Positions 14,650-32,685 of a DNA stretch of 45,917 nucleotides are shown here, one piece after another (positions within the stretch are counted from its first letter, which is position 1; the number at the start of each line of letters is the position of its first letter). Location: the sequence record MN840485.1; one strand, given 5' to 3'. A program made the translations under genes and the position numbers. The notes under the pieces were generated by a model. The model made no database searches, was not told where the DNA came from, and saw nothing but the letters and a program-made list of their open reading frames with translations. Origin of the DNA: Escherichia phage 2725-N35.

Positions 14650-14656
14650 ATGATAT

Positions 14657-16767: not shown

Positions 16768-16771
16768 TAGT

Positions 16772-17122: not shown

Positions 17123-17133
17123 AAAAATCCTTA

Positions 17134-17147: not shown

Positions 17148-17152
17148 GTTAA

Positions 17153-20134
17153 TTAGTTAAATCCGCGCAGGTACTGATAAGCTCTGCCACCCTGCTGGAA
17201 AGACTGAGAAATCTCTTCAGCTACAATTGCCTTAACGCCATTTTGCAGCGCCTTGGCCTGCTCTGGGTCACTTCCAATTCCACTATTAACGTTAACCGTA
17301 ATTCCACTAACATTAACATCTGTGCCTCCAGAAACCAAGCCACCATTTGCATAGCCAGAGGGACCACCAACGACACCACCGTTTGCGTAACCTTTCATTA
17401 GAGCGTAAAGGTTCTTAACACCGATTCGACTAGTTGCTTCTTTTGTGAATACAAACTCACCACGGTGTACGGTTCCTGCTGGTTGGTATTTCCCTCCATT
17501 ACCAGTATAACCACCGTTAGCGAATCCACCACCAATCGCAGATGCGATAGAGCCAATCGCGCCACCAGTACCACCAAAGCTACTTAAACTAGACTCGATA
17601 GCCTTAACAATAAGAAGCTGAGCCGCAATCTTAGCAATCTGTTTAAGGATGTTAACAGTGAACTCTCTGAAGTTAGTTTCACCAGTTGTTACAAGGTCAG
17701 TAATCTGGTCAGTAATGCCTTCAAATACTGTGGTGGTTAAACTTCCAGCAATTGAGAATGCATCCGTCGCGCTCTCAGCCCAATTAGCAAAGGATTGGTT
17801 CACACCAGCAAGCCAGTTTTCACGTAGCGCATCTTCCTGAGCATAAAAGTTACGTCTTGCCTCGAGAAGCTGCTGAAAATCCACGTCATCAATTGCGCCA
17901 CCAGCATTAACCTGATTGGACTGAAGAGCCTGAATCTCTTTGGCTCTCTGTTGTTCACGAGAAGATAGACCAGCCCCCAAATCAATGTTTTTTGCTTCGT
18001 TGTTAATCTGAAGAATCTTCTTGCGGTTATCTTCAGCTAACTTATTGGCTCGCTCCTGCAAAACAATCTGATCACCCAATTCAGCCTTCTGCCTGGCCAA
18101 CTCAAGAACTTTATCCTTTTCAATTAGAAGTCTTGCTTGCTCTTTGGTAATTGAGCCATCAAGTTGCCTCTGCTCAAGAATCCTGAATTTAGCCTCCTCC
18201 TGAAGATACTGCTTGCGCTCATTGCTTATTACTGCGCCAATATCCCTATTTTCCTGAAGTACCTTGAGTTGGGCCTGAAGCGCTAGAACGCCAGATTCAT
18301 AACCAATTGTTAAATCTATTTGCTCCTTAACCCTACTATTTTCTTCTTTCCTGTTCTTCTTGATCGCATCAAGCTCATCCTGAAGCGCCTTCTTCCTTTT
18401 TGCAAATTCCTCATCAGTACCTGACTGCTCATTGGTATTCTGATTTTCTCTGCGAGTAACGTAACCAAGCTCTCCCTCTCTGATTCTGGCATCTCGCTCC
18501 TTGATAGACTTCTCTAGCTCAAGGTTTTGCTTCTTGGCGGCATCGATAATCTTCTGCTGCCCCTTGATAACATCATCACCAACGCCATCAAGACCAGGAA
18601 TGTTCTGCAATGCCTGAGTTGCGCTAATTACGAATTCACCAATCAGCGCATCACCCTGATTAATGAAGACCCTGATCTGCTCAATTGTTCCGGCGATTAC
18701 GTCAACAAACAGGTTTAGAGCCCCAACCGTTCTACGGCTAATTGCATCCCAGATATCAGAGATGTACTTTCTGAAATCATTCCAGGCTAGCTCAAGCGGA
18801 GTTAACTGCTCTGCTATGTCGTTAAGGTTGGCTTCCTGCGACTTGCTGAAAATGTCAATTGCGGCGGTAACAGCCTCAACCTCTCCCTTTGTCTTCCTAA
18901 GGTTTTCAATTGTCGTCAACTGCCCCTGAGTGAGGAAGTTAAAGCGCTTATCCAAATCAACCAATCCCTGTATTGGGTCGCTAGCAATCTGGTTGTAGTA
19001 ACCAGTAATTTCCTTTGCATCCTTACCTGTCAACTGCGCCCATCTTGCGGTTGATTTAGTAATCTTGTCAATCTGCGTCAGCGTAAGGTTTCCTTGCTCA
19101 ACAAGGCTCGTTGCGATGCTAGTCACAAGTCCCCTAGTGGCTCCTGTTGCATCAGAAACAGAACTAACCAACTCTCTAACCTGCGAGATTGATGCTATTG
19201 TAGAGTTGTTGGAGAACGCAATTGCGGAGTTTAACGCCCTGAATTCACTTTCAGCCTGAGCCGCACCAACACCAAGAGCTACAAGCGCCCCACCCAAAAC
19301 ACCAACAGCAACATTGAATGGATTTAAGGCTGCAAGCGCGAATCTAAATGTGTTGCCAATACCGCCAAAGCTATCCTTAATCTGCCCACCCTGCTGGATT
19401 GCAATAAGCCAAACAGGCATGCCGCTAGCTAATGACGTGGTAATATCAGTTATCTGTGCCGGAAGCATCCTGATAGCATTCCTGTATTGACCGGCACTTA
19501 ATCCTGATCTCAGAAACGCCTTACTTTGGTTTGCTAATTGAACATTAGCCCTCTCTGAAGCCTCTGCGATTCTGTCAATAATAGGTGCTGCCTGAGAGCT
19601 TACGCCAAGCTGAGAAGCCTGTAACTTTAAGTACTCCTCACGCGTCAATGTTGCCGCTTGAGCCTGTCGCTCAAGTGAAGCAATGAATCTATCAGCTTCA
19701 GCCTTTGCCTTTGCCTTATCCTTTGCGGCTTGAGCTGCCGCCCTACCCTCTTCAGTTAGTGCCGCACGTGAACGGGCGAGCTTTGCATTCTGCGTTTCAA
19801 GAGCCTCGCCTAAGCGGAAAAACTCCTCATCAGGAACTACGCCAGCAGCAAATGCCTTATCAAGTCCTACAGCCGCCTCTTGCAGCTTACGGAACTTTGC
19901 CGCAGTTGGATCAATAGCAGTTTGCAATTTAGCTAAAGATGCTTGTTGCTCAGCAAGTGCGTGAGCGGTATCTCTAGCCTGGTTTTTCGCAACCTGCTCA
20001 GCATTGACGAACTCACTAATACCGGAAGCGGCTTGCTGGTTGGCCTGTCTGAACTTCTGTAGGGATTGCGTACCCCTGTCTACCTGAGATACGTCTACGG
20101 CTAGTGTGATTCCGGCTAATTCATTTGTTGCCAT
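17153..20134 (-). CDS. Tail tape measure protein
   Basis: 993 aa, long coiled-coil-rich (A/Q/E/K/L) sequence, located between the chaperones and the tip genes. Confidence 0.85.
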   Translation of the reverse strand: MATNELAGITLAVDVSQVDRGTQSLQKFRQANQQAASGISEFVNAEQVAKNQARDTAHALAEQQASLAKLQTAIDPTAAKFRKLQEAAVGLDKAFAAGVVPDEEFFRLGEALETQNAKLARSRAALTEEGRAAAQAAKDKAKAKAEADRFIASLERQAQAATLTREEYLKLQASQLGVSSQAAPIIDRIAEASERANVQLANQSKAFLRSGLSAGQYRNAIRMLPAQITDITTSLASGMPVWLIAIQQGGQIKDSFGGIGNTFRFALAALNPFNVAVGVLGGALVALGVGAAQAESEFRALNSAIAFSNNSTIASISQVRELVSSVSDATGATRGLVTSIATSLVEQGNLTLTQIDKITKSTARWAQLTGKDAKEITGYYNQIASDPIQGLVDLDKRFNFLTQGQLTTIENLRKTKGEVEAVTAAIDIFSKSQEANLNDIAEQLTPLELAWNDFRKYISDIWDAISRRTVGALNLFVDVIAGTIEQIRVFINQGDALIGEFVISATQALQNIPGLDGVGDDVIKGQQKIIDAAKKQNLELEKSIKERDARIREGELGYVTRRENQNTNEQSGTDEEFAKRKKALQDELDAIKKNRKEENSRVKEQIDLTIGYESGVLALQAQLKVLQENRDIGAVISNERKQYLQEEAKFRILEQRQLDGSITKEQARLLIEKDKVLELARQKAELGDQIVLQERANKLAEDNRKKILQINNEAKNIDLGAGLSSREQQRAKEIQALQSNQVNAGGAIDDVDFQQLLEARRNFYAQEDALRENWLAGVNQSFANWAESATDAFSIAGSLTTTVFEGITDQITDLVTTGETNFREFTVNILKQIAKIAAQLLIVKAIESSLSSFGGTGGAIGSIASAIGGGFANGGYTGNGGKYQPAGTVHRGEFVFTKEATSRIGVKNLYALMKGYANGGVVGGPSGYANGGLVSGGTDVNVSGITVNVNSGIGSDPEQAKALQNGVKAIVAEEISQSFQQGGRAYQYLRGFN

Positions 20135-20154
20135 CTAAGCCTCCATAATAGAAA

Positions 20155-20180
20155 ACCCGCCGAAGCGGGTTATTTTTTTC
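20155..20180. terminator. Hairpin between the chaperone and tape measure genes, with a strong T-run on the plus (antisense) strand
   Basis: ACCCGC-cgaa-GCGGGT followed by TATTTTTTT on the plus strand. Confidence 0.45.
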
Positions 20181-20481
20181 TCAGGTTATCCATCATCTCA
20201 AGAGCCTTAGCTTCAAGGATGCGTAAATCGCTGAGCACCAATTCTTCTTCAGAGACATTATACACTCTAAAGAGGAAATTTAGCACGTTGTAATCCATCC
20301 CTGTAGCTCCGTTAGCTCCGACTCTCCACTGCGTAGCCATTGAACAATAAATGTCCCACGCTTTCATCATGTTTTCGTCGAAGTTTAAAACTTCAGGCTC
20401 TTCGTCTTCGTAATCAGAGCGGCGCATCCCAATAGCTTCCAGTTCGGCATCAGTTGGCTCTGACTGGTACTGTAGATACAC
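20170..20481 (-). CDS. Tail assembly chaperone, downstream (gpT-like) frame
   Basis: Overlaps the upstream chaperone ORF by 32 nt; no ATG at its 5' end (track starts at GTG), consistent with expression as a frameshift fusion. Confidence 0.55.
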   Translation of the reverse strand: MYLQYQSEPTDAELEAIGMRRSDYEDEEPEVLNFDENMMKAWDIYCSMATQWRVGANGATGMDYNVLNFLFRVYNVSEEELVLSDLRILEAKALEMMDNLRKK

Positions 20482-20803
20482 CGCTCGTTTTAGTTTTTAC
20501 TCGCTGACCAGCAAGTGCTTGCATATAAGCCGTGGTCAGTGCAACGGTTGAAGCTGGGAACAGGTCGGAGAACTCATTAACGTTATCCTCGTTGTATTCC
20601 TCTTCCAAATCCCAATCAGAAGCAATTGCCATAATAAGCTCTTTGGTGCTCAAGTCTTCCTTGTTAAGCAATTCCTGAAGTTCAGAAGTCTTCTTGTGCT
20701 TAACTGTAAAAATAACCTCTACATCCTGGTCGTTAGCCAGCTTGAATTTTACTGGTAGCTTGAAGTCTGGCAGTGCCGCCAGTGAAAGTTTGAACTTTGC
20801 CAT
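20450..20803 (-). CDS. Tail assembly chaperone (gpG-like)
   Basis: 117 aa acidic protein directly upstream of the tape measure gene, downstream of the major tail gene. Confidence 0.65.
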   Translation of the reverse strand: MAKFKLSLAALPDFKLPVKFKLANDQDVEVIFTVKHKKTSELQELLNKEDLSTKELIMAIASDWDLEEEYNEDNVNEFSDLFPASTVALTTAYMQALAGQRVKTKTSGVSTVPVRAN

Positions 20804-20842
20804 TTTTGTTAATCCTCTTATTGTTTGTGAGTATGTATTCTA

Positions 20843-21091
20843 TTACTTAGTGTTTTCTTTTGCAATATTAGCAGCCGAGTCCTTGCAGACCTCTTTGCCA
20901 TATTTCATGATTTGGTCAACTTTACCACCTACAAGTTCCTGGCATGCTCGCTCAGCTTTAGCGAACTCAACAGTATATTTGTTTGCCTTGATATTTGCAT
21001 CAGCCTCACCAGTTGGGTTAACAATCTGAACCACTGCATAAAAAGCAACCAGAACTGCAGCAAGCTTGATGATGTTTTTAACGTTATTCAT
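20843..21091 (-). CDS. Moron: small secreted or membrane-anchored protein
   Basis: 82 aa; N-terminal hydrophobic segment IIKLAAVLVAFYAVVQIV; own P-box promoter and an upstream terminator; inserted between the major tail and chaperone genes. Confidence 0.6.
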   Translation of the reverse strand: MNNVKNIIKLAAVLVAFYAVVQIVNPTGEADANIKANKYTVEFAKAERACQELVGGKVDQIMKYGKEVCKDSAANIAKENTK

Positions 21092-21109
21092 TTCTTTAAT
21101 CTCTCATTT

Positions 21110-21170
21110 CGTTTCGATGAGTTAACTATACAGGAAGATTGGATTAACGCTTTAGCAAAAAGTGCTATGC
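21110..21170 (-). promoter_or_regulatory. P-box promoter for the moron gene
   Basis: ATAGCACTTTTTGCTAAAG, 22 nt, TATAGTTAACTCATCGAAACGAAATGAG. Confidence 0.6.
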
Positions 21171-21175
21171 AATAA

Positions 21176-21201
21176 AAAACCCTCCGAAGAGGGTTTGTGT
21201 T
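21176..21201 (-). terminator. Terminator after the major tail protein gene
   Basis: ACCCTC-ttcg-GAGGGT then T6. Confidence 0.75.
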
Positions 21202-21858
21202 TTAAACTTCCGCTGCAACTGAGGACAGCCGACCATGAATGGATACAGCGATGGATACCGTTTCGATTTCGTTTACGCCGATAGTTGGCGTGTCGTTGAA
21301 AGCGATAGTGCCGGACTGCAAGCGCATTTCACTGGCGCGAGGAACAAACAGACGAATCGCAACAACCTGTCCTGACTCATCATAGTTACGCAGAACCGGA
21401 TAGACCGGGTTGGTGTACTCGTGAGCGAAGGTGAAGGTGTTCGTTACCGCAGACTTATAAGTAGGAATCTGCTGTTCACGGTCACTAGAAAGACACTGGA
21501 AGTTAACGAATTGCTGTTCGCCACCATCAGTAGATACATCCTGAACACAAGGAACTTCGAACCATGAAGTGATCTTAACAACTTCACCAGTTAAACCGGC
21601 CGGGAACTTGGTGGTGCTGGAGGTGTCAATACCTTCAACAGTTACTGACGTATCAGTGATTGCAGTCACTCGAACTTGCTTGTAAGCCAGAAGCGTTGAA
21701 GCAGAAGAGGTGAAAAGCAGGTAATCACCAACGACCAAACCAGAAGCGTTAGATACAGTTAAAACAGGGGTAACTGCGTTAGAAATTGCAGTTACGTCAA
21801 TCGCATCACCGCGAGAGCCTTCTACGAACACCTGAGTGCCGTTTGATAAATGAGCCAT
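21202..21858 (-). CDS. Major tail protein
   Basis: 218 aa, position (lambda gpV equivalent), followed by a strong terminator. Confidence 0.7.
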   Translation of the reverse strand: MAHLSNGTQVFVEGSRGDAIDVTAISNAVTPVLTVSNASGLVVGDYLLFTSSASTLLAYKQVRVTAITDTSVTVEGIDTSSTTKFPAGLTGEVVKITSWFEVPCVQDVSTDGGEQQFVNFQCLSSDREQQIPTYKSAVTNTFTFAHEYTNPVYPVLRNYDESGQVVAIRLFVPRASEMRLQSGTIAFNDTPTIGVNEIETVSIAVSIHGRLSSVAAEV

Positions 21859-21873
21859 GTATTTTTCCTTTTG

Positions 21874-22275
21874 TTAGTCTAGACGAACATAAAAACGAAC
21901 CGGGATAAACCACCCAGATTTGGATTTGATAACCGGGTTAACAATTCCAGACTCATAAATGGTCCCGCTGTCAAGCATTGTACCATCAACGATAGATTCT
22001 GCCAATTGATTAGCGATTTGTCTCGGCTTATCAATACCAGTACCAGGGCTGAAGAAAACAGAAATTTGCACCATTCCAACGTAGTATTTGCACTTCCTGC
22101 TTAGCCCGTAGGTTACAGTGTCAACCTCTGTGTAGTCGTACTTAAGCCAGATTGAGCCGTCAGCAGGGGGAGTAAATGCAGTATTCTCCCACGCAACTGG
22201 ATACCTGACTGGAAATTCATTTACCAACAAATCGTTGACGAATTTCCTTGCTGCTAATGATAATTTATATTGCAC
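21874..22275 (-). CDS. Tail terminator protein (gpU-like), putative
   Basis: 133 aa directly upstream of the major tail gene. Confidence 0.45.
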   Translation of the reverse strand: MQYKLSLAARKFVNDLLVNEFPVRYPVAWENTAFTPPADGSIWLKYDYTEVDTVTYGLSRKCKYYVGMVQISVFFSPGTGIDKPRQIANQLAESIVDGTMLDSGTIYESGIVNPVIKSKSGWFIPVRFYVRLD

Positions 22276-22702
22276 GACGAGCCTCCTCTACAGCTTCCTG
22301 GAAATACCTGCCAAGCCTCGCTTGCACCACGCCCAAAACACCAGACGGAGCCTGATTTGAAGCTCCATACTCAAGGTTGGCTGCGTAATCAAGTCGGTTA
22401 GTAATATAAATAACACTAGTGGCTTTTGAATTGGCTACTGCTCTGGCTTGTCTGGCGAGATATGTTTTTGTCTGCCCGCCAGTCTGATCGTACTCATTCA
22501 GAGACTGCTGGGCTGGTGAGTTTGCGGTAATTTGCCAGTTAGCCTTGAATCTACCAGTGTCGACAGGGGAAAGGTCCACAATTGCGTTGGCTGTCTTGGT
22601 AACCGTGTTGGCGACTACAATTTCAAATCCCTTATCTGCTCTGTTAATCCAGTCAGCAATAGATTTCTCAAAAGTAGCAACGCTTCCAATATTTCTAGCC
22701 AT
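22265..22702 (-). CDS. Tail completion/neck protein, putative
   Basis: Start trimmed to ATG (MARNIG...) with GGTGG SD; position in the connector module. Confidence 0.4.
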   Translation of the reverse strand: MARNIGSVATFEKSIADWINRADKGFEIVVANTVTKTANAIVDLSPVDTGRFKANWQITANSPAQQSLNEYDQTGGQTKTYLARQARAVANSKATSVIYITNRLDYAANLEYGASNQAPSGVLGVVQARLGRYFQEAVEEARRAI

Positions 22703-23066
22703 AAGTAGCCACCCTACGAAGAATCGGTCTGTAACCAACCACTGTACCAGTTGGTTTAACTGGTCGCGGATCAACAACAACAAAAGTCTCGCCATCAACT
22801 TTAATCTGATAACCCTGCTTAATTTCCGCCTGTGCTGTGAAGATTCCGCGCTTATCGCCAAACTGGATAAACTCGCCATCAATATCTCGCGTCTTGATTT
22901 CTCGCACTAAGCCTTTTAGCTGGAATGTTTGCGCTGGCACTTCTACTTCAACGCCATTGACGATTTTAACATATCCAGCACCAGTGCTCATCTCGTAGAC
23001 GCCATTGGCATCACTAAAGAAGTTAATTCCAGCGCGAGTGATTGATTCAATTTCGTTGTAGTTCAT
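22695..23066 (-). CDS. Head-tail adaptor protein, putative
   Basis: Position; ATGA overlap with the upstream gene. Confidence 0.35.
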   Translation of the reverse strand: MNYNEIESITRAGINFFSDANGVYEMSTGAGYVKIVNGVEVEVPAQTFQLKGLVREIKTRDIDGEFIQFGDKRGIFTAQAEIKQGYQIKVDGETFVVVDPRPVKPTGTVVGYRPILRRVATYG

Positions 23067-23464
23067 CGGCAACCGCACCCACCGCCACGAGCGGAAGTAA
23101 TCAGTCCAAAGCCGCCACCTTTCTTGCGGAGAAGTGATTTGTACATACGGCCCCAGGAGGAAGATGATAAATCACCTTGGATTGCTGATTGGTTATCATA
23201 GGTGATAGAGAATTCACCGCTAAGTGCATAACTTGCCATTCTACGGCTGTATGTCTCAAGGCCTTCATTCTCACCCTTAAAAGCGCCATCAGAAAGCATC
23301 AGGTGTAATGCATAAAGGCCCACAGCGCGATCTGCATCATTACCAAGCTTACTCTCACATACGTAGAGACGTGCCAAATCGATCCACACATTAATTGATT
23401 CGTCATCCACTGCCTTGAGCGCAGGAACAAGTGAGCGCATAAACGCCAAAATTGCATCATTCAT
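23063..23464 (-). CDS. Head-tail connector (gp6-like), putative
   Basis: Position downstream of the capsid gene; start set at ATG with GGAG SD (track starts at TTG). Confidence 0.35.
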   Translation of the reverse strand: MNDAILAFMRSLVPALKAVDDESINVWIDLARLYVCESKLGNDADRAVGLYALHLMLSDGAFKGENEGLETYSRRMASYALSGEFSITYDNQSAIQGDLSSSSWGRMYKSLLRKKGGGFGLITSARGGGCGCR

Positions 23465-23505
23465 ATTAACTCCATACAATAAAGGACGCCGAAGCGCCCT
23501 GTTTG

Positions 23506-23751
23506 TTATTTGTACTCGTTGCCAGTCTCAGCTTCGGAGATGGTTTTCGGTTCTTTGCGCTTTTTCTTGCTAACAATTTCTTGCGCGATCTGTTTGGTTG
23601 TTTTTGCGTCACCCTCAATGGTTAGCTTACCCTCTGCAATTAAACGCTTGAGTCCGTCGCAAATTACATCAACCTCGAAAGTGTCACCAGGCAGATATTT
23701 CTCACCCTTATAAACGATAAGGCAAGCGCCAGTGTGTTCTAAACGAATCAT
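23506..23751 (-). CDS. Hypothetical small structural-module protein
   Basis: 81 aa ORF between the capsid and connector genes. Confidence 0.4.
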   Translation of the reverse strand: MIRLEHTGACLIVYKGEKYLPGDTFEVDVICDGLKRLIAEGKLTIEGDAKTTKQIAQEIVSKKKRKEPKTISEAETGNEYK

Positions 23752-23812
23752 TTTTGTCTCCTTTGTTTATCTGATTGAGTGATTATAACTCAACAAATCC
23801 ATTTGGTACAGA

Positions 23813-23843
23813 CGTAAAAAAGCCCTACGAAGAGGGCCATTTA
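23813..23843 (-). terminator. Terminator after the major capsid gene
   Basis: GCCCTC-ttcg-(T)AGGGC then T6. Confidence 0.7.
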
Positions 23844-24785
23844 TTACTCGTAGGTAATGCCTTTCATTACTGCCATCGTCAGAGGACGATATAAAATCAA
23901 ACCTGTAGCCTTAGAGGTTACGGGGTACTTAAAGTGCAAGTCCTTAGGTTGACCAGGAAGCACATTGGTAGCCTCTGGAATCTCGATAGACATATTGAGC
24001 GGGTTCTTCTCAAATGCCAGGGCAGCCTTACCACCTGCGCCATCGTAGTTATCCAGGAACTGAAGATAACGCAGATTGATACCAGAGTTGTTGGTAGCGA
24101 ACAGCTGAGCGTAACTGATAGAGGTGTTAGGAACCAGCTCTTGCATCAGGCGGCGAGCGGAAGCAGGTAGCAAGATATCAGTTGCGGTGTGAGTTCCATT
24201 AGTCGAAGTCTCGATTGCATCAATAAGTGCGGTAATATCAGTCATGGCGGCAGCTGCGGAGTTCCACGTACCAGCAACAACGTTGTTTATGTTCGGGTGG
24301 TCGAATACGCTAGGAATGCCGTGCGGAGCAGAGCCAGACCAAACCAGTTTGTCCAGCAGGTTATCGTGCGCTTCGAAAGCCAGTGCTTGCTTGCGAGTTG
24401 ACAGAGACTGACCAGTTGCGGCGCCTGCTTTAATTTCATCGGTAGAAATCAGGAATGCGTTACCGAAACGGAACACTTTACCTTGTTTCTCGGTCATGAA
24501 AGCGTCAACCAGCGGCAAGTCGTCAGAGTAATCAGCGATAATCTGAGCGATACCAACACCATCAAATTCTGGGTATTCGAAATATTTCGCATGACCAGGG
24601 ATTTCATTGGTCACAGGGAAGATATTAACAACGGAGTTGTCTGCATATTCTTTTTCGTAAGCTCGTGCCAGATTGGCGGTCAGTTGCTTAACAGTCCAGA
24701 TACCAGCGGCATCTGCTTTCTCTACGCCCATTTGCTCGAGGTGAGCGGTGATTTTTGCTTGTTCTGCATCAAATTTAATGGCCAT
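23844..24785 (-). CDS. Major capsid protein, putative
   Basis: 313 aa; position between the head morphogenesis and connector genes; flanked by a terminator. Confidence 0.55.
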   Translation of the reverse strand: MAIKFDAEQAKITAHLEQMGVEKADAAGIWTVKQLTANLARAYEKEYADNSVVNIFPVTNEIPGHAKYFEYPEFDGVGIAQIIADYSDDLPLVDAFMTEKQGKVFRFGNAFLISTDEIKAGAATGQSLSTRKQALAFEAHDNLLDKLVWSGSAPHGIPSVFDHPNINNVVAGTWNSAAAAMTDITALIDAIETSTNGTHTATDILLPASARRLMQELVPNTSISYAQLFATNNSGINLRYLQFLDNYDGAGGKAALAFEKNPLNMSIEIPEATNVLPGQPKDLHFKYPVTSKATGLILYRPLTMAVMKGITYE

Positions 24786-24877
24786 TCTTTATTGTTCCTT
24801 TTCAGTTAGGTGTCTACGAGCTTATTATACAGTAGGGCGACCGCAAATCAATAGATAAGTTAGCTGCCCATAATGTG

Positions 24878-25567
24878 TTAGCTCGCGATAATCTTAGCTA
24901 CTCGAAGCTGCGCCAGGAGGTCGTTTACTTTAGTGACTACTGCGTTAACTGCCGCAGTAGCCGAGGTGGCAACTGCTTCCGCGTCAGCACCTGTCACAGT
25001 CTGACTCACAACGTTAGCGACAGCCGCGCCAGCAACAAACTTGTTTCCAGGCATGGCGTTTTTCGCTCCAGCACCGATCTGGATAACGCCAGCCTCAGTG
25101 GTGCTTGCGGCAGGAAGGCTGGCTACAGGAACGACACCACCAATGTTAGCCAGCGTCTTATTTCCAGCCATAGCTTGGTTTGCGCCAGTGCCAACAATCG
25201 GTGCAAAAGTGGCTGGTTTTCCGGTCACGTCACCCCAAGCTACTGAAACAGATCCGCCCGAACTTCCTTTATATGCATAAGCAAATAGCTGACCAGCATC
25301 AAGACTCAGGCTTGATGTATCAATGGTGAATCCGTCATCAGATGCTTCCTCGATAGCGTCGAACAACTTACGCATACTTGTGGAAGTGATCACCTTAGCT
25401 TCAGTGATTGAGCTATCAGCGCCCTTAGCAACAACGATGGAATATGACTGTGAGCCATTTACCGTGATTTTACTTACTGGCTGAAAGCCTGCCGTGATTG
25501 CCGCTTGCAGCAGTGTATTGAATCGACCGCTATCTGCACTGATAGCCTTAACTTCTGTGTAAGCCAT
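24878..25567 (-). CDS. Head-module structural protein (possible decoration/fibre-like protein)
   Basis: 229 aa; A/G/V-rich C-terminal half with 'WGDVTGKPATFAP' motif; role uncertain. Confidence 0.3.
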   Translation of the reverse strand: MAYTEVKAISADSGRFNTLLQAAITAGFQPVSKITVNGSQSYSIVVAKGADSSITEAKVITSTSMRKLFDAIEEASDDGFTIDTSSLSLDAGQLFAYAYKGSSGGSVSVAWGDVTGKPATFAPIVGTGANQAMAGNKTLANIGGVVPVASLPAASTTEAGVIQIGAGAKNAMPGNKFVAGAAVANVVSQTVTGADAEAVATSATAAVNAVVTKVNDLLAQLRVAKIIAS

Positions 25568-25624
25568 GATTTATCTCCTTTTCTAAGTGAGAATTGAATA
25601 TAACATAGGCGTAATTTGATTACA

Positions 25625-25660
25625 AAAAAACCTCCCGAAGGAGGCTTTATATATCTTAAT
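25625..25660 (-). terminator. Terminator-like hairpin after the 25663..26184 gene
   Basis: CCTCC-ttcg-GGAGG then T7. Confidence 0.6.
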
Positions 25661-25662
25661 TA

Positions 25663-26184
25663 TTAAACAGCGACAGTTGAGTCTGCTGATTGAATCAACT
25701 GAACCTCAACCATTGCACCATCAACGCTTTCACCTTGCTTAATTGGGTCAGCGCCGCCAGCGTAAGCCGACACATAGCCACCAGCAAATGTAAAACCAGT
25801 TTCCCAGGTAGTGGTAGCAGCCTCAGCAGCAACAACGCCACTCGCGTTTACGTAAACCTTACTACCAAAAACTGGCGCAGCCGCTAGAGTTGTACGAACC
25901 CAGATTCGACCGTGTGTCATCACGTTAACCGCTTCATTTACGCGAGCGGTGCCATCTGGAGTCTCATAATGAGATTTAACAACAACACCGTAAGGTTTAA
26001 CTGGTGTGCCAGTCACAGCAGGAAGCCCAACAACTTTGTGACCATCTACAGGCTGAGCGGATGTAACGCCAACAAAAGTGCCAACCGGAATGGCTGCTGC
26101 GCCGCCAACTACGCAAGCGCCGTCGATGTTGTACAGAGAAGTATCAGAAACCATACCAGCCAGTGCTACGGAACGAATTGCCAT
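25663..26184 (-). CDS. Head-module protein (possible decoration or scaffold-like)
   Basis: 173 aa, G/A/V-rich; position only. Confidence 0.3.
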   Translation of the reverse strand: MAIRSVALAGMVSDTSLYNIDGACVVGGAAAIPVGTFVGVTSAQPVDGHKVVGLPAVTGTPVKPYGVVVKSHYETPDGTARVNEAVNVMTHGRIWVRTTLAAAPVFGSKVYVNASGVVAAEAATTTWETGFTFAGGYVSAYAGGADPIKQGESVDGAMVEVQLIQSADSTVAV

Positions 26185-26196
26185 GTTTATAACTCC

Positions 26197-27291
26197 TTAT
26201 TTCTTAATTTTAGCTAAACGAGCACGTGGGTCTAATTTCTTAGGCTCATCGGCGCTGTCAGATTTGTCGGAAGCAGTAGTTGCTTTACGTACTTCAGCCA
26301 TTTTATCAGATTCTTTGGCAATGTCGAATGCCGCGTCGATGTATGCGTCAGACTTCTCACTAACATCAAGACCGGAGACTTCTTTAACGTAAGCAACTTT
26401 AATGCCTTTAGCATCCAGACCGTCAGCCTTAACACCAGCCTCAGCAGCAACAGCAACCAGAGCGGCTAGGGCATCAGCATCAGCTTTCGCTTTAGCAACG
26501 GCAGCTTCGATTTCAGCTGGCATTGCATCTACTTTAGCTTTCAGAGAATCGCGCTCTGCGATTGCAGTGTCAGCCTTTGCGTTCAGTGCTTCGATGTGAG
26601 AAGCGATTTCCGGGGCAACTTCAAATTCCTGTGCTCCGTCGAGTTTAATCTTAATCATTTTCTGTTTATCCTCTTTATTGATATCAACGTCAGTAGTATA
26701 CGGGTTTTCCTGTTGAGCGTCAAAATTTAACTTTGCCACCTGAGCTCTTCCTTTGTATACCAGTGCGACATGGTTTACTTTAATTTCAGTCTGCAGCGCA
26801 TCGAATCTAACCCAGTCAGAAGGAATTTCATCCTGTGATTGATACTCACCGTCTAGCTTGTACTCACCAGTTTCGTTACTACCCCAGCCTTTAGACTCAA
26901 CGTCAACAGTTGAGTACCCTACGGATAGCTCACCAGCAATGCCATTTTTTGCCTTCTCGATTGATTCCTTGTCATAAATAGTTAGTGGAACAATAACATT
27001 TGAATCTTCACGCATTGCTGAGCCAGATACCGCCCCTACAACGACCTCTTTAGCATTCTCTGAGTTAACAAAAACATGACCTAAGGTAATTGGCTTACCC
27101 TGATAACTAGCCAGAGAATCATGCTTAAATACCTCTGAGGCTGGTCTAAATTCTCTGCGTTCTTTGCCATCTGGAAGGTAGTAGGTTTGCACCCCGACGC
27201 GTGCAACAATCGGGGTATCAACCAGAAAGCCGTTTTCATCAAATCTAGCTTTCACCTTCGCGCTGTCATAGCGCAATTTCTTCATTAACAA
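26197..27291 (-). CDS. Head morphogenesis protein (possible prohead protease/scaffold fusion)
   Basis: 364 aa directly downstream of portal; C-terminal A/K/E-rich coiled-coil-like region. Confidence 0.45.
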   Translation of the reverse strand: MLMKKLRYDSAKVKARFDENGFLVDTPIVARVGVQTYYLPDGKERREFRPASEVFKHDSLASYQGKPITLGHVFVNSENAKEVVVGAVSGSAMREDSNVIVPLTIYDKESIEKAKNGIAGELSVGYSTVDVESKGWGSNETGEYKLDGEYQSQDEIPSDWVRFDALQTEIKVNHVALVYKGRAQVAKLNFDAQQENPYTTDVDINKEDKQKMIKIKLDGAQEFEVAPEIASHIEALNAKADTAIAERDSLKAKVDAMPAEIEAAVAKAKADADALAALVAVAAEAGVKADGLDAKGIKVAYVKEVSGLDVSEKSDAYIDAAFDIAKESDKMAEVRKATTASDKSDSADEPKKLDPRARLAKIKK

Positions 27292-28534
27292 CCTCCGTCT
27301 CTGTGATTAATTCCGATTCCTCGGCCTGGATATCGCCATCACCAATCTTAATTTCTGGTGCGATAGTGCGTAGTGTATCACGGGCTTCGTTAGTATCCAT
27401 AGCGCCAGATGCAATTAGCGTCGCGATGCTGCTTACGTTCTTCTCAAGAATCTCAGCCTTATCCTTGCTTGACTCCTGAGCTAAGGGATAAAACTCAACT
27501 GACCACTCTTCTACATTTACGATGAACGGGATTAAGAACCCAAGAATAGGAAGCAACTCAGAGTTACGTTTGCGGTCAACTAGCTTATGGAATGTCTCAA
27601 GGGCTGTATTCTGGCTTGATGACACACCACCAACGTTCTTGTTTTTCAGGATGATTTCATGGATACCGCTCAGGGCAACGATTCTATCGAACTTCTTATC
27701 CAGGAACGCATCGATCCCGCCAATATCGGAGTTGAGAATGCTGTATTCTTCAGATTCCGCATCGATACCAATCGCCTGGCCTACGCCGCTATTGTTGTCA
27801 ACCTGTGCAAGTCTCAATCGAGCTGCACCAAATCCTTCGCTATCATCACATAACTCAGCCAGACCTTTCGCCTTCCACACCGCCTGCTGCTTGCGCTTCA
27901 GTAACTGCGTAGCAAGTCGTTCACAGTTGGTGTAATCCTTAATTGAGTCAAGAATGTCACTGGATAGAACGCTACGGCCCCAGCCATCATTTTGCCGACG
28001 CATTACGTTAGGAATTCGCTCACCATCTATGATATGAATGCGGCTATAATGCACATCGTAGAACATATCGCTTTCGTTTGTGGTGATGCGATAGGTTAGG
28101 GGATTACCAAAACGTGCGTTGCGTGGATTCTCCTCTCGAGTTTGTACTTTCACCTGCGTGCGGTCGTAAACACGAACGGTTTCAAGTTCTGCGCCTTCTC
28201 TTACCGGGCTTGTTAGAGATCTATTGTCTTTGACGATAGCCACAATAGCAGAACCGCCGAACAATCTAGCCCACGACCAGGCTTCGTTGATGTGCTTTGT
28301 CAGCTCCAGGTAGTCCCAACGAGACCAAAATGCTGGCTCATCATCAATACCATCAATGTGGAATCCTGCCGCTAATGCTGTCTCAGGGATTGTGTCGATA
28401 ATTCTACGTACCAGCGCATTATTCGCATAAAGAGAAGCCAGGATTGTAGGCTCCTGATTCTGTAAGCTCCCGTAAATCTCACTACCATCACTGCCGCCGA
28501 GAAAGATATTGGCGTAGCTGTCTGTCTTTACCAT
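27266..28534 (-). CDS. Portal protein
   Basis: Size and position downstream of terminase; start trimmed to ATG (MVKTD...) after the upstream hairpin. Confidence 0.7.
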   Translation of the reverse strand: MVKTDSYANIFLGGSDGSEIYGSLQNQEPTILASLYANNALVRRIIDTIPETALAAGFHIDGIDDEPAFWSRWDYLELTKHINEAWSWARLFGGSAIVAIVKDNRSLTSPVREGAELETVRVYDRTQVKVQTREENPRNARFGNPLTYRITTNESDMFYDVHYSRIHIIDGERIPNVMRRQNDGWGRSVLSSDILDSIKDYTNCERLATQLLKRKQQAVWKAKGLAELCDDSEGFGAARLRLAQVDNNSGVGQAIGIDAESEEYSILNSDIGGIDAFLDKKFDRIVALSGIHEIILKNKNVGGVSSSQNTALETFHKLVDRKRNSELLPILGFLIPFIVNVEEWSVEFYPLAQESSKDKAEILEKNVSSIATLIASGAMDTNEARDTLRTIAPEIKIGDGDIQAEESELITETEVVNEEIAL

Positions 28535-28551
28535 TGCATTTCTCCAATAAA

Positions 28552-28575
28552 AAAGCCCCATGTGGGGGCTAGTTT
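28552..28575 (-). terminator. Hairpin with T-run upstream of portal
   Basis: GCCCCC-acat-GGGGC then T5. Confidence 0.5.
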
Positions 28576-28591
28576 ATCACACGGTTTTTGA

Positions 28592-28966
28592 TTACTCGAA
28601 TTTTACTTCGAACTTGATTGATGATGTATCAACCCCACTAGATTCAAAGTCCTTGACGCATAATAGCGTATCGTCGAACTTTACCTTAGTAACCACTTCG
28701 CCATTGATGTAATATCTAAACTCGGGTTTTTTATCGGCGCTAGGATGCATGGATGCGCACTCAGTTTCAGTTACAAAATGATCCTCATTGATTAGTTTAA
28801 ACTTGTAGAACGTTCCGTTTTTAATACAACGTTCAGTATCATTATCATCGCAAAGACCAATAAATCCATCACCAAGATCGTAAAAATCGTACTCTCTTCC
28901 CGGCGTGAATTCACAACACTCGTCATAAGTGTTTCCAAGATATAAAGCCTTTGATTTGTTTTTCAT
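28592..28966 (-). CDS. Moron: Cys-rich small protein between TerL and portal
   Basis: 124 aa with several Cys; own P-box promoter upstream, hairpin downstream. Confidence 0.55.
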   Translation of the reverse strand: MKNKSKALYLGNTYDECCEFTPGREYDFYDLGDGFIGLCDDNDTERCIKNGTFYKFKLINEDHFVTETECASMHPSADKKPEFRYYINGEVVTKVKFDDTLLCVKDFESSGVDTSSIKFEVKFE

Positions 28967-28989
28967 TTGCCTTTTCTCCTCTTGTTTGT

Positions 28990-29045
28990 GTGAAGTAACT
29001 ATACGCCATCCGTGGCTCTAGCGTTTAGCAATTCGTGCTATTTAA
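28990..29045 (-). promoter_or_regulatory. P-box promoter for the 28592..28966 moron
   Basis: AAATAGCACGAATTGCTAAAC, 22 nt, TATAGTTACTTCACACAAAC; the TerL stop codon (TAG) lies within the motif. Confidence 0.6.
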
Positions 29046-30609
29046 TTCCCGCTATGCGCATTAGTCGCGCTTTGGGGTCATCTGAGATATTGAGAACAAG
29101 GTTTACCGCCATTGTCATGGTATCAATTTGGTCGTCGTGCTTATGCGAGTCGTCTGCAGTGAAAGCCGCAATCTCAGTGAGTAATCCGCTTAGCCACGGT
29201 GCTGACTCCGGAAGAACGACGTTACCAGCCTTAATCTGTGGCAATGCGCTCATTACCCTAGTTAGCTTGTCGTTATCCGGTACGTATGGCTCTATCGGTG
29301 TTCGCATAACCCTGCCAGCTGATTGAATAAGGCCGATACCAGACGCTTTCTTCTCGATAATAATCTTTCGGAGGATACCATCCGACTGACTGGTTGCCCT
29401 TGATTTCTTCTCGAAGTCCAGTAGTTCAGCTTCCAATTCCGGCGCTTCCCACTTACCTCTGCGCTGGTCTATCAGGTAAATCCTAGCATCCTTATAGCCC
29501 CATAACTGAAGCACGGAGAAGTCACTATAACTCTTTGTGGTCATCGCAGTATCGCAAGTTATGAATCTATAATCGTACTTGGCTGGAGGCCTGAATGTAT
29601 CACTAAGACGCTGGAACCAGTCTACGTTAATCAGATTGCCACCAAGTGCTACAGGTTCTTGTTGATACTGACTTAGGAAAGTGTACGGGTCAGCATCCCA
29701 CATAGCCATCAAGTCTTCTATTGATTCCTTTGCCGGAAAGTAGCTGTAATACTTAACTCCATCCCGCTCTACGAATGGCGAAGAAAGAACATCATCAATA
29801 AATTGTTGCTTAATCCAATCAGGAAGCGTGTCTACGTAATCCTCTGTGACTATGGCTGGAACTTTCACTACGTCGAACTTGATGCCCATTTGTCCAGACT
29901 CCATGAAGTGGCTAGTATCCAGAACATGAAGTCTTTGCTGAACTGCAAGTATTGGCGTTTCCTTTCCCTTTACTGAGCTAGCTCGACGTGAACGAATTGT
30001 GTTCTTGAGAAGCATATTGACAGCCTCTCTTCTTACATTACTTAGCGCGTCATCAGGTTTTAGTGGGTCATCCAGCATTATGCAACCACTATAATCGTCA
30101 GTCATGTAGCCACCCCTACTTCCCGTCACCTGTCCAGCCATCGCCTTAGATATAGACTCAAACCTAACTTTGCCACTCTCATCCAGCACCTGAATCTCGT
30201 CATCCCTGCATGTTCCAAAGGTGCAAGGCCAAAGCTCCTGGAACTCCTTTGACTTAATTAGGTCACGGACGCGCTTGGAGTTGCGCTTAACCAATGAGTC
30301 AGAGAATGACAAACTAAGATTCCTGACCTTCTTAATCTTAATCATGCTATACACAGGGAAGTGAATGCTAAAAAGTTCGGTTTTGGCAGATCCAGGAGCT
30401 ATGTTTATGATGGTGTCCTTTCTCTTTCCCTCAAGAATCTCATCTATAACACGGCATAGGTACTTAGTATGCCAATTCATTTTGAATCTCTCGCCCTGAG
30501 TTATCTGGAAGAAACACCGCAAGAACCACTCGAAACTATGCTCAGAGATGGCCTTGATAGCCATTTTTTCTGCATACGTCAGTTCATCCCACACGATTAA
30601 ATCACTCAT
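29038..30609 (-). CDS. Terminase large subunit
   Basis: Walker A-like 'IAPGSAKT', Walker B 'CIMLDDP', C-terminal nuclease-like region; start chosen at ATG after GGAGG (track ORF extends to 30690, overlapping the HNH gene). Confidence 0.85.
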   Translation of the reverse strand: MSDLIVWDELTYAEKMAIKAISEHSFEWFLRCFFQITQGERFKMNWHTKYLCRVIDEILEGKRKDTIINIAPGSAKTELFSIHFPVYSMIKIKKVRNLSLSFSDSLVKRNSKRVRDLIKSKEFQELWPCTFGTCRDDEIQVLDESGKVRFESISKAMAGQVTGSRGGYMTDDYSGCIMLDDPLKPDDALSNVRREAVNMLLKNTIRSRRASSVKGKETPILAVQQRLHVLDTSHFMESGQMGIKFDVVKVPAIVTEDYVDTLPDWIKQQFIDDVLSSPFVERDGVKYYSYFPAKESIEDLMAMWDADPYTFLSQYQQEPVALGGNLINVDWFQRLSDTFRPPAKYDYRFITCDTAMTTKSYSDFSVLQLWGYKDARIYLIDQRRGKWEAPELEAELLDFEKKSRATSQSDGILRKIIIEKKASGIGLIQSAGRVMRTPIEPYVPDNDKLTRVMSALPQIKAGNVVLPESAPWLSGLLTEIAAFTADDSHKHDDQIDTMTMAVNLVLNISDDPKARLMRIAGIK

Positions 30610-31114
30610 CTTTCCTCCCATGGTTTTTATGATACCCAAGAATAAATTCAGCCCTCGCCCTGACAATCGACGCGTCGTGAATATTATCAAAGAATCCCAA
30701 GTGAATATTCTCTCCGTCCTTTTTTATTTGAGCCGCATACTTACCAGTCCTGGATACTATGCAGACTCCGGTAACCCCGGTCTTATTCCTCGAATTTATT
30801 GATTGATTCTTTCTATTTTCCTGAATTGTAACTAACCTAAGGTTTTCTATCCTGTTATCATTTCTAACATGATTTATATGGTCAATTTGCATACCTTCTG
30901 GTATTGCTCCGTTATGCATTTCCCAGATTATTCTATGAACCCAATATTTTTTACCCGGCATGTTTACCCTAACATACCCTAGGCTTTTATCAATGCCGCC
31001 AACCTCTTTCCCTATGAATCTTCGCTGTATCCTTCTCCTTCCAAGCTTCTCGCTATCGTAATCTTTCCAGTAAATCTTCCCATCTTTGTATTCAAAATAA
31101 TCATGCCAATTCAT
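30602..31114 (-). CDS. HNH endonuclease (homing-endonuclease-like)
   Basis: 'IDHINHVRNDNRIENLRLVTIQENRKNQ' HNH motif; inserted between terS and terL. Confidence 0.8.
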   Translation of the reverse strand: MNWHDYFEYKDGKIYWKDYDSEKLGRRRIQRRFIGKEVGGIDKSLGYVRVNMPGKKYWVHRIIWEMHNGAIPEGMQIDHINHVRNDNRIENLRLVTIQENRKNQSINSRNKTGVTGVCIVSRTGKYAAQIKKDGENIHLGFFDNIHDASIVRARAEFILGYHKNHGRKDE

Positions 31115-31182
31115 ATCGCCACCTCGTTAGTTTGTTGGGCCCATTATCTCATTGATTGGGCCTCTTCTTTTAACAATAATTG

Positions 31183-31689
31183 CTATAACTTACTAATAAC
31201 AGACTCCAGCGCTTCCTTCATGCTATCAACGTCGTTAGCTGTGGAGTTGTTGCTAATGGTAATCTCCTGCGGCTTATCAATCCCTAGCTCTTTACCAACG
31301 ATTGTGGAGTTGATGATGCCTGCAACGCCAAGCTGATACTTCTGCTCGTAAATTACGTTATCAATAAATTCCATCACATCAGAGTATCCAGCCTCTGTAC
31401 GCCAGCGTGCGAATCTATTGATGTTAACACCCATGAAGAGCGCCAGACCTGTTAATGTGAATACTCGAGGCTTGTGCACTAAACTCTCGCTAACCACGCC
31501 CTGGAATGCCGCCGTCTCAATGGCTTTGATTGCCTCATTCTCAGCCCATGAAAAGTATCTCACTGCAAAGTCAAATACCTCCTCTGGAGTGCACTTGCGG
31601 TTGATTGCCACCATAGCAATATCGCCATACTTCTTGTTATAAAGCGCCTTGAAATTTCCATCACCCATCTTTAATGCTGCTTTGCTCAT
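31183..31689 (-). CDS. Terminase small subunit, putative
   Basis: 168 aa directly upstream of HNH/TerL; first gene after a strong promoter. Confidence 0.6.
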   Translation of the reverse strand: MSKAALKMGDGNFKALYNKKYGDIAMVAINRKCTPEEVFDFAVRYFSWAENEAIKAIETAAFQGVVSESLVHKPRVFTLTGLALFMGVNINRFARWRTEAGYSDVMEFIDNVIYEQKYQLGVAGIINSTIVGKELGIDKPQEITISNNSTANDVDSMKEALESVISKL

Positions 31690-31699
31690 TTAATCCTCC

Positions 31700-31730
31700 T
31701 TTGTTGAGGTCAGATTATACCATATTGCAG
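31700..31730 (-). promoter_or_regulatory. sigma70-like extended -10 promoter (TGgTATAAT) for the packaging/late operon
   Basis: Minus reading: tgcaataTGGTATAATctgacctcaacAAAGGAGGattaaATG. Confidence 0.55.
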
Positions 31731-31732
31731 AC

Positions 31733-31760
31733 GAAAAAAAGCCCTCAAGCGAGGGCTAAA
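31733..31760 (-). terminator. Rho-independent terminator ending the tRNA/small-gene transcript
   Basis: AGCCCTCGCTTGAGGGCT then T7 on the minus strand. Confidence 0.75.
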
Positions 31761-31801: not shown

Positions 31802-31984
31802 TTACTTTCGCTCACGAACGTAAGCTACCAGGAATTTGTGAGTGTCATGGTCAGCACCTGACATCCCTTTTACTTTCGCTACCGCATCCTCAGCGCTGAT
31901 TGCGGCAACTGACGCGATGTAATCTTGAGTGCAATTCTTGCACGAGCGGCCCATTAAGCGAATGGACAGTTTCACATCCCACAT
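31802..31984 (-). CDS. Hypothetical small protein
   Basis: 60 aa; strong SD AAGGAG 7 nt upstream; immediately follows the tRNA. Confidence 0.55.
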   Translation of the reverse strand: MWDVKLSIRLMGRSCKNCTQDYIASVAAISAEDAVAKVKGMSGADHDTHKFLVAYVRERK

Positions 31985-31999: not shown

Positions 32000-32077
32000 T
32001 GGCGCTCCGCACTGGATTCGAACCAGTAACCTACGACTTAGAAGGTCGTTGCTTCTGTCCTGTTGAGCTAGCAGAGC
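32000..32077 (-). tRNA. tRNA-Arg(UCU): tRNA-Arg (anticodon UCU) with encoded CCA
   Basis: Minus-strand GCTCTGC...ACGAC-CTTCTAA-GTCGT...ACTGG-TTCGAAT-CCAGT-GCGGAGC-G-CCA: 7-bp acceptor, 5-bp anticodon stem with UCU, canonical T-arm. D-arm is irregular. Confidence 0.75.
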
Positions 32078-32445
32078 ATTTTAATGAGTCCCGGTTACGG
32101 CTCCGGGGCTGCCTGATACAGCCGCTTAATCTGCCTATTTGCGCTAGGTCTTAATGCCGCATACGCTACTTAATGAGCAACGGACTTACCGTGTAGTGCG
32201 CTCCGTGCGCCGTTCCATCTTGGATGGCTGTGTTCTACGTGGTTAATGTTAGATGGTTCCGCTCAGTGATGCAAGCTCTTTTTAACAATCTCCATCTAAC
32301 CGATTAAAAAGTAAGCCCAAGCAACCAGCCCTGCGATAAACCAGATTGCTAACTCACTCATAGATAACCCACAATTTTCAGACTTAGCACAACACACCCC
32401 AGGATTAGAGCTGCGCATAATATGAAAATTACATATCCTATTAAG

Positions 32446-32685
32446 TTACTCATAAAGGCTATTCCCATTCTCGTCATGACCAACGCGACCCTTAAGATAC
32501 CCACTCGTCCAAACAAAGCGATCTCGACTAATGATTGTAAACACTGGTTCCCACATCTTTGAGATCAATGCCGCAACCTGCCTATCATCCTTGCGCTGCT
32601 TTGGTGATAACTTGCTGTACTCCTCGTTCAACTTTGCGGCCTGACGCTTAACCACGTTAAAGTGTGCCTCTGATAATCCGAACAT
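32446..32685 (-). CDS. Hypothetical protein
   Basis: 79 aa ORF in an early operon. Confidence 0.5.
   Translation of the reverse strand: MFGLSEAHFNVVKRQAAKLNEEYSKLSPKQRKDDRQVAALISKMWEPVFTIISRDRFVWTSGYLKGRVGHDENGNSLYE

Follow-up and report, generated by a model that had tools for sequence, protein, structure and literature searches.

The window, by which we mean the whole 45,917-nucleotide (nt) stretch of Escherichia phage 2725-N35 (MN840485.1), comes from a T1-like Escherichia coli siphovirus (Drexlerviridae, subfamily Braunvirinae), and the locus described here lies around a tRNA-Arg(UCU) gene on its minus strand, which also carries the surrounding genes. As transcribed, the order is a 79-amino-acid (aa) open reading frame (ORF), a 368-nt stretch, the tRNA gene, a 60-aa ORF, a terminator, terS, an HNH_3 ORF and terL (Table 1); among T1-like phages the region matches DTL, CEB_EC3a, the vB_EcoS-12210I group and Rtp, at 86–93% identity. 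An earlier note, made from the sequence alone, had described the 368-nt stretch as structured, GC-richer and free of ORFs, and as lying simply upstream of the tRNA in the same transcript. It is indeed GC-richer (0.50–0.52 at 32000..32300 vs. 0.35–0.46 in the flanks), but its distal 158 nt (32453..32296) hold two ATGA-coupled ORFs of 31 and 21 aa, and the stretch also contains a conserved, probable promoter (32274..32246), followed by a leader RNA that abuts the tRNA, covaries among relatives as a folded RNA should, and recurs across the family. What the earlier note had overlooked was the strand, the pair of small ORFs, the promoter within the stretch and the family-wide occurrence of the leader.

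Table 1. Features at the tRNA locus of the window, in transcribed order
Feature	Position	Strand	Remarks
79-aa ORF	32685..32446	-	PHROG 303
31-aa hydrophobic ORF, MSNLIGYVIFILCAALILGCVVLSLKIVGYL	32358..32453	-	ATG overlaps stop of 79-aa ORF
21-aa hydrophobic ORF, MSELAIWFIAGLVAWAYFLIG	32296..32361	-	ATG overlaps stop of 31-aa ORF
A-rich tract TTAAAAAGAG, possible UP element	32276..32285	-	just 5' of -35 box
Probable sigma-70-type promoter	32246..32274	-	-35 TTGCAT (32274..32269), N17, -10 TAACAT (32251..32246)
Structured leader RNA, ~163 nt	32078..32240	-	unpaired 5' end ACGUAGAACACAG, hairpins H1–H6, tail ACUCAUUAAAAU abutting tRNA 5' end
H1, CCAUC-CAA-GAUGG	32215..32227	-	compensatory changes in 4/5 pairs within Braunvirinae; at least 9 stem variants family-wide
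H2, GCGC-ACGGA-GCGC, within 16-mer AACGGCGCACGGAGCG	32198..32210	-	16-mer invariant in Braunvirinae; at least 10 other stems in other Drexlerviridae
H3, outer stem G.CCGU/GCGGC, inner stem GCU/AGC	32156..32185	-	Braunvirinae-specific expansion
H4, CCUA-GCGCAAA-UAGG	32134..32148	-	Braunvirinae-specific; absent from IMM-001; no covariation, weakest helix
H5, GCUGU-AUCAG-GCAGC	32108..32122	-	conserved AAnCGG before it; 3 compensatory pairs; at least 10 stem variants family-wide
H6, CCCGG-AGCCGUAA-CCGGG	32090..32107	-	covarying pairs: 2 in Braunvirinae, 5/5 family-wide; at least 9 stem variants
tRNA-Arg, anticodon UCU, discriminator G, encoded CCA	32000..32077	-	ARAGORN; Rfam RF00005
60-aa ORF, motif CxxC...H	31802..31984	-	PHROG 2919; final gene of unit
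Intrinsic terminator closing the leader-tRNA-ORF unit	31734..31757	-	7-bp GC-rich stem, then T7
Extended -10 element TGGTATAAT	31714..31722	-	perfect; 12 nt past terminator U-run, ~25 nt before terS start codon
terS	31689..31183	-	Pfam GP3_package
HNH_3 endonuclease ORF	30602..31114	-	Pfam PF13392, E 8e-23; between terS and terL, overlapping terL start

The tRNA gene itself is ordinary. It scores 56.3 bits with Rfam RF00005 (gathering score 29, E 1e-9) in a full-length model match at 32077..32003, ARAGORN reads the anticodon tct at position 36, and the 3' CCA is encoded at 32002..32000, the sequence ...GGAGCGCCA ending at 32000; the gene, its anticodon, its CCA and its place between early and packaging genes had been reported correctly by the earlier note. 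A tRNA-Arg(UCU) is already known in these T1-like coliphages and is annotated in many relatives (SU57, MSK, EC3a and 12210I among them), and with these, T4 tRNA-Arg and E. coli argU the window gene shares the canonical cloverleaf and the UCU anticodon, without any essential difference, making it a plain member of the group; its anticodon arm is nearly identical to that of argU. All 22 Braunvirinae relatives examined carry the gene, and in all of them the leader directly abuts its 5' end. The paper describing MSK states that the gene is absent from Rtp and DTL, which is contradicted by ARAGORN, as it detects the gene in both phages, where it is unannotated. A role in decoding AGA has been proposed before for SU57 and MSK (PMC7718038, PMC8421802). 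Counted over a rough set of the window ORFs, AGA is the commonest arginine codon (146 of 623, 23%; 11.1 per 1000 codons) and AGG reaches 7.9 per 1000, both being concentrated in the tail, tape-measure, terL and HNH genes and missing from the capsid-region ORFs. AGA usage in E. coli is roughly 2 per 1000, and since AGA is the commonest arginine codon of the window ORFs these counts are consistent with the tRNA supplying AGA decoding, the rationale that the earlier note had also offered.

The leader RNA and its probable promoter

The leader would begin near 32240, a start placed from the position of the -10 box. Its universal core consists of the unpaired 5' end CGUARACAnAAGAG, H1, H2, AAUCGG followed by H5, H6 with a CCGUAA loop that is conserved family-wide, and the tail, H5 and H6 being neighbours with 0–1 nt between them, to which Braunvirinae have added H3, H4 and several optional hairpin modules. 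Within the Braunvirinae alignment the H1 stem takes the forms CCAUC/GAUGG, GCCAC/GUGGC, ACCAC/GUGGU and CUAGC/GCUAG; in H3 a U.G pair becomes U-A or C-G, and a G-C pair becomes A-U in CY1 and IMM-001. Two stem-loops had been picked out by eye in the earlier note, both exist (CCCGG-N8-CCGGG at 32107..32090 and GCTGT-N5-GCAGC at 32122..32108), and compensatory changes in relatives preserve the two of them. After H6 the window sequence runs through the tail ACUCAUUAAAAU into the tRNA, and no GC-rich hairpin with a U-run terminator is found at the 3' end of the leader.

Comparison between relatives carries the case for structure. In a MAFFT alignment of 18 Braunvirinae sequences, analysed with RNAalifold and pair counts over 31 pairs, standard pairs filled 99.1% of 554 cells (89.5% in column shuffles), 10 of the 31 pairs showed compensatory changes on both sides, and the covariation score of 0.281 (shuffle mean 0.104) was reached by none of 500 shuffles; when the 3' partners were slid by 1–3 columns, pairing dropped to 24–42% and covariation to 0.003–0.052. 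A family alignment of 37 sequences, fitted to a covariance model, gave compensatory change in 26/31 pairs and a covariation of 0.392 against a shuffle mean of 0.086, with slid-partner controls at or below 0.058 in both alignments, covariation being counted throughout per sequence and not per evolutionary event. Independent extraction of the hairpins yielded at least nine different stem sequences each for H1, H2, H5 and H6. Judged from these alignments the leader is a real, covarying structured RNA, and the support for it is comparative, not energetic.

The wobble cells of the alignment comprise 31 G.U and no A.C pairs, therefore the structure is read in the minus-strand RNA and not in DNA. This bears on the idea that the hairpins work at the DNA level, whether as an origin, as a pac site or as a set of sites bound by proteins; the region adjoins the packaging genes, and T1-like phages have a poorly defined pac site (PMC11447400, PMC7718038), both of which speak for such a role, but the wobble bias is what is expected of RNA rather than of duplex or cruciform DNA, a promoter lies directly upstream, and restriction analysis put the pac site of TLS elsewhere. 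We consider a DNA element very unlikely.

Several other candidates were rejected. As coding sequence the leader offers no minus-strand ORF of 25 aa or more, it has indels, in the range of 3–80 nt, whose lengths are not multiples of three, and a 10-aa AUG ORF in H1 occurs in one stem variant only. On another alignment (A1) RNAalifold joined the promoter spacer to the linker preceding H5 in a long-range helix, which was dropped as it pairs untranscribed DNA. Two ideas formed by eye are not conserved across clades, namely GGA sites of the CsrA type and a pseudoknot in which the H2 loop would pair with the AAUCGG linker. Not counted among these rejected candidates is a possible closing helix GAG/YUC of tRNA-less relatives, which spans just 3 bp and which the window sequence (CAG) breaks. 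Separately, a (C)AUUAA(G) motif occurs in five copies at 32082..32250 of the minus strand, in the inter-hairpin linkers and the -10 region; it is found in Braunvirinae only.

The promoter is assigned because of its homology to sites in relatives and its pattern of conservation. Across 19 aligned relatives the hexamers TTGCAT and TAnnAT are invariant (T23–T28; T46, A47, A50 and T51), and the spacer varies in sequence and is 17 nt long throughout; conserved hexamers around a varying spacer are likewise found in distant clades. The A-rich tract marks the 5' limit of conservation in all relatives, and insertions upstream of it in relatives, such as those in DTL, PCEc3, BEK2, T145P1 and BEK1-1, stop exactly there. 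Every distant leader match is preceded by TTGAC(G/A/C)-N17/18-TAnnnT, often with an extended TG, and the conserved RNA 5' end follows 6–7 nt on. For example, a promoter scan calls the homologous site at 7587..7616 in T1, 1182..1210 in W011D and 642..670 in the locus L073, each ending exactly where the RNA match begins; these sites read TTGAC(G/C)-N17/18-TAACAT or TAGTAT, agree with 9/12 consensus positions, and in two cases have the extended TG. GenBank records annotate no RNA or regulatory feature at the promoter and leader, and the TLS re-annotation lists three promoters only, none of them here (PMC11447400). The papers searched held no report of a promoter, a small RNA or a transcriptome at this locus, nor the transcriptome of any T1-like phage. 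What is new is a covarying RNA motif in a classic phage family, behind an unannotated, probable promoter, together with a defined slot for tRNA capture.

Distribution of the leader and of the tRNA slot

A covariance model made from the Braunvirinae leaders was searched against fetched loci (L-numbers are our locus labels). It matches the window at 32079..32245 with 183 bits and T1 at 7617..7743, in the unannotated gp58–gp57 gap, with 33.5 bits (E 1e-10), and it further matches W011D (Tempevirinae), Enterobacter phage Phc (Eclunavirus), TLS (L095) and 22 of the 31 non-Braunvirinae loci from IMG/VR, always in synteny, upstream of a homologue of the 60-aa ORF; a motif search adds leaders in L081, L082, L091 and L092. 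Homologues of the 60-aa ORF are present in 788 phage records, the ORF always lying 3' of the leader. At the sequence level, the window type of leader occurs in ~88 Braunvirinae phage records (88–92% identity) and the T1 type in 74 (93–100% identity). A composite pattern of promoter, 5' motif and loop picks out 44 IMG/VR contigs, almost all of 48–53 kb, and a single locus in 32 million bacterial and archaeal contigs, which lacks a match to the covariance model; an exact 16-mer search of IMG/VR returned 18 matches, six in true Braunvirinae and the rest by chance. No blastn match to the leader was found in 5,426 E. coli genomes, therefore it is not host-derived. Rfam 15 has no family matching 32078..32445 at E <= 10 or the T1 or L073 leaders at E <= 5, and scans of the window, EC3a, T1 and L073 at gathering and permissive thresholds returned tRNAs only. 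In one locus, L108 (IMGVR_UViG_2974601010), the model matches twice, at 8433..8547 and 8861..9065, ~300 nt apart, which may be a tandem duplication.

The tRNA has a narrower distribution, ARAGORN finding one in only a single locus (L068, Arg-UCU) of the 31 non-Braunvirinae IMG/VR loci. In phages without a tRNA the leader ends in a hairpin GCGGG-AACCGUAA-CCCGC, followed by AACCAUUC, AGGAG and the start codon of the next small ORF, whose identity varies among these phages; in the window the ribosome-binding site (RBS) of the 60-aa ORF, AAGGAG, lies 6 nt past the tRNA CCA. Because the same promoter-plus-leader is present in T1, TLS and most sampled Drexlerviridae without a tRNA, the leader is older than the tRNA. 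We propose that promoter and leader form an old, family-wide module, which would serve in T1, TLS and most other subfamilies as the 5' untranslated leader of a small operon with the 60-aa ORF, and that a tRNA gene was inserted between the leader tail CAUUCAA and the RBS in Braunvirinae, with independent insertions in a few other lineages. We regard the anatomy, and this history of an ancient leader with an inserted tRNA, as highly probable.

The same distribution tells on the view that the stretch is a mere 5' precursor leader of the tRNA, with processing or spacing signals only. It abuts the tRNA directly in all the Braunvirinae examined, as that view would have it, yet the element is conserved, with covariation, in the tRNA-less T1, TLS, W011D, Phc and others, and bacterial tRNA leaders are normally short and unconserved. 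Processing signals alone, one of three suggestions of the earlier note, fail because the element is conserved where there is nothing to process, and we regard a simple precursor leader as extremely unlikely.

Directly after the leader, the slot is filled by different tRNAs in different lineages: Arg-UCU, as in the window; Arg-CCU in the Christensenvirus-like phages CY1 (L010), IMM-001 (L011) and TR1 (L060); and Ser-GCU in LF82-19 (L056, fetched separately from GenBank) and its relatives LF82-11 and Klebsiella phage KLB19. Different tRNAs in one slot therefore indicate that tRNA genes were captured or replaced more than once at this site. In EC3a (L001; 1804..1902, minus strand) and PCEc3 (L002) an extra tRNA, Ile-UAU, which reads AUA, stands directly downstream of tRNA-Arg; it scores 41.3 bits with RF00005, has an unusually long variable arm of ~27 nt, is missed by ARAGORN, and is absent from the window. 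The locus hence shows where and how T1-like phages gain tRNA genes, with three identities in the slot and a fourth behind tRNA-Arg in EC3a and PCEc3, and bears on the debate over codon supplementation versus defence evasion as the purpose of phage tRNAs.

Could the 368-nt stretch then be one or more decayed tRNA genes from a former array, the second suggestion of the earlier note? Two tRNAs do occupy the site in EC3a and PCEc3, and identities do differ among lineages. Against this, no tRNA or tmRNA model matches 32078..32445 at E <= 10 and ARAGORN finds one gene only, in line with the earlier note having seen no second tRNA; the hairpins have 4–5 bp and loops unlike those of D, anticodon or T arms, the extra tRNAs of relatives lie downstream of tRNA-Arg, outside the leader, and the leader is found in tRNA-less relatives. 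Decay from a tRNA is barely conceivable.

Possible roles of the leader

In the reading that we favour, promoter, leader (~32240..32078), tRNA, 60-aa ORF and terminator would make up a self-contained minus-strand unit of ~500 nt. Host RNA polymerase would start near 32240, RNase P would cut at 32077/32078, maturing the tRNA and freeing the ~160-nt leader RNA as a discrete species, and the 60-aa ORF would be translated from the remaining 3' fragment. The mature tRNA would add decoding of AGA, and probably of AGG, to a phage rich in these codons. The terminator would end the unit, equivalent terminators following the small ORFs in T1, W011D and L073, and terS would restart from a promoter of its own, which it probably has because a perfect extended -10 element lies between the terminator and its start codon. 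As one explanation, covering unit, history, processing and regulatory role, we give this a little better than an even chance.

Its regulatory part is more tentative and falls somewhat short of even: the leader may be a protein-binding regulatory leader, of operator or attenuator type, that would set the output of this small unit ahead of the terminase genes. A protein would recognise it through the invariant unpaired 5' end CGUARACAnAAGAG and the CCGUAA loop of the last hairpin, the invariant loop and tail nucleotides suggesting contact with a protein. The T4 gene 32 leader and the Mu mom leader with Com are comparable, in that the leader of this family is likewise a conserved, folded 5' leader ending at an RBS, and a small Cys-containing protein is always encoded downstream; they differ in that in the window the tRNA parts the leader from the RBS, which those operators would not tolerate.

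Several results count against the favoured reading. On single-sequence folding the leader is no better than its shuffles (z = -0.29; 81 of 200 shuffles fold as well), which leaves the earlier description of the stretch as structured standing on covariation in relatives and failing on energy. H4 shows no covariation and H2 is invariant within Braunvirinae. The window promoter has the weaker -35 box TTGCAT, agrees with 7/12 consensus positions, falls below the threshold of the promoter scan and is not called by it. The anatomy, the conservation and the RNA-level fold with its strand are shown by the sequence comparisons; the start site, the release by RNase P, the stability of the leader and its regulatory role are all things that we infer. 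Furthermore, the inserted tRNA would sever an operator from its RBS, yet Braunvirinae keep and enlarge the leader, which favours a role without linkage in cis; as it should part the leader from RBS and polymerase alike, it weighs against purely cis-acting mechanisms in this phage.

That last point is where a stable phage small RNA, trans-acting or protein-sequestering, enters the argument. RNase P cutting at the tRNA would make its 3' end in Braunvirinae, an intrinsic terminator would do so in a single clade, and other phages would rely on mRNA processing, with the conserved 5' end as a seed or binding site. It would account for a leader that is kept and enlarged (H3, H4 and extra modules) where the tRNA parts it from any RBS, and for the conservation of an unpaired 5' end of 14 nt. 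In the clade of L071, L079, L081, L082, L083, L086, L097 and L116 the last hairpin is a long GC stem with a U-run before the RBS, its loop keeping CGUAAGA; this is classic small-RNA architecture, and it looks like a terminator or attenuator version of H6, such that it fits either attenuation or a small-RNA gene. Stable RNAs are also known to be cut from tRNA transcripts, namely the T4 species 1 and 2 RNAs and E. coli RtT. However, in most of the family a Shine-Dalgarno sequence follows the leader directly and no signal marks a 3' end, and blastn detected nothing resembling the leader in E. coli genomes, complementarity to targets not having been searched. Of the three suggestions in the earlier note (small RNA, degraded tRNA, processing signals) this is the one that survives, and we think it unlikely on present evidence.

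The same RNAs allow a closer comparison. Like them, the leader is a structured non-coding RNA co-transcribed with a tRNA that could be freed by the same RNase P cut; unlike the T4 species 1 and 2 RNAs and RtT (RF00391), it predates the tRNA, does without one in most of the family, would begin at the transcription start and stands on the 5' side of the tRNA, and neither in sequence nor in structure does it match RtT or any Rfam family. We note its resemblance to stable RNAs of tRNA transcripts, to late-gene leaders and to protein-operator leaders without claiming membership in any of these groups.

The leader stands at the early/late boundary, a short way before terS and terL, and this position invites a reading as an antitermination element, either a cis-acting RNA that makes polymerase terminator-resistant, as HK022 put does, or part of a late promoter like lambda pR'/qut, allowing read-through of late-region terminators, of which there are ~9 good ones on the minus strand here and 11 annotated in T1. 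H5 and H6 are adjacent hairpins, and the motif CTGAyyGG in the promoter spacer is conserved, as is the initial transcribed sequence. HK022 putL/putR and the lambda pR' 6S leader are similarly promoter-proximal, with short adjacent hairpins, and stand before packaging or late genes followed by terminators, a likeness by position and hairpin adjacency only. In contrast to these, the window unit ends at its own strong terminator, with the extended -10 promoter of terS directly after it, and there is a single copy per genome; moreover, once RNase P had cut at the inserted tRNA, the RNA would no longer be tethered to the polymerase, and CTGAnnGG is displaced by 7 nt in Braunvirinae. Antitermination of this kind is decidedly improbable.

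More broadly, promoter and leader may represent an undescribed class of regulatory RNA in T1-like phages, either a switch that is factor-independent or uses a small protein (attenuation or antitermination) at the early/late boundary, or a small RNA whose 3' end is made by an RBS junction, a terminator or RNase P, with the 3' slot as a landing pad for tRNA genes; we hold this with considerable doubt. T1 belongs among the classic phages of Delbruck, and contamination by T1-like phages is notorious in laboratories and fermentations. Hardly anything is understood of how they control gene expression, and a 2024 paper on TLS lists questions of this kind (PMC11447400). With a promoter and leader conserved from T1 to Rtp, the early/late boundary gains a candidate regulatory element concrete enough to be tested. 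Taken together, the earlier note was partly confirmed in what it observed and partly supported in what it made of it, its proposed Infernal/Rfam-type scan finding the tRNA and no Rfam family in the leader at E <= 10.

Neighbouring small ORFs and packaging genes

Upstream of the promoter, the two coupled ORFs likely encode small membrane peptides. The 31-aa ORF varies among relatives and is missing from Rtp, 12210I and OzMSK, where the 21-aa ORF overlaps the stop of the 79-aa ORF directly. The 21-aa ORF is kept in most Braunvirinae, with third-position changes of the coding type, and is absent or truncated in SCS31, MM01, CY1, IMM-001 and IME542. The EC3a annotation has a 44-aa "putative membrane protein" over the same DNA, by another choice of frame. 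An extra Cys-rich ORF of ~100 aa with CC..H..C..KC motifs lies between the 21-aa ORF and the promoter in DTL (L003), PCEc3 (L002), BEK2 (L033), T145P1 (L035) and BEK1-1 (L036), and a related ORF is annotated as "transcriptional repressor" in CY1 and IMM-001.

Downstream, the ~9 strong minus-strand intrinsic terminators of the late region are spread over 14633..31757 of the window, a layout that resembles the "transcripton" arrangement annotated for T1. The HNH_3 ORF looks like a mobile homing-endonuclease insertion, because terL directly follows terS in DTL, EC3a and 12210I. AGA or AGG make up 15 of its 16 arginine codons.

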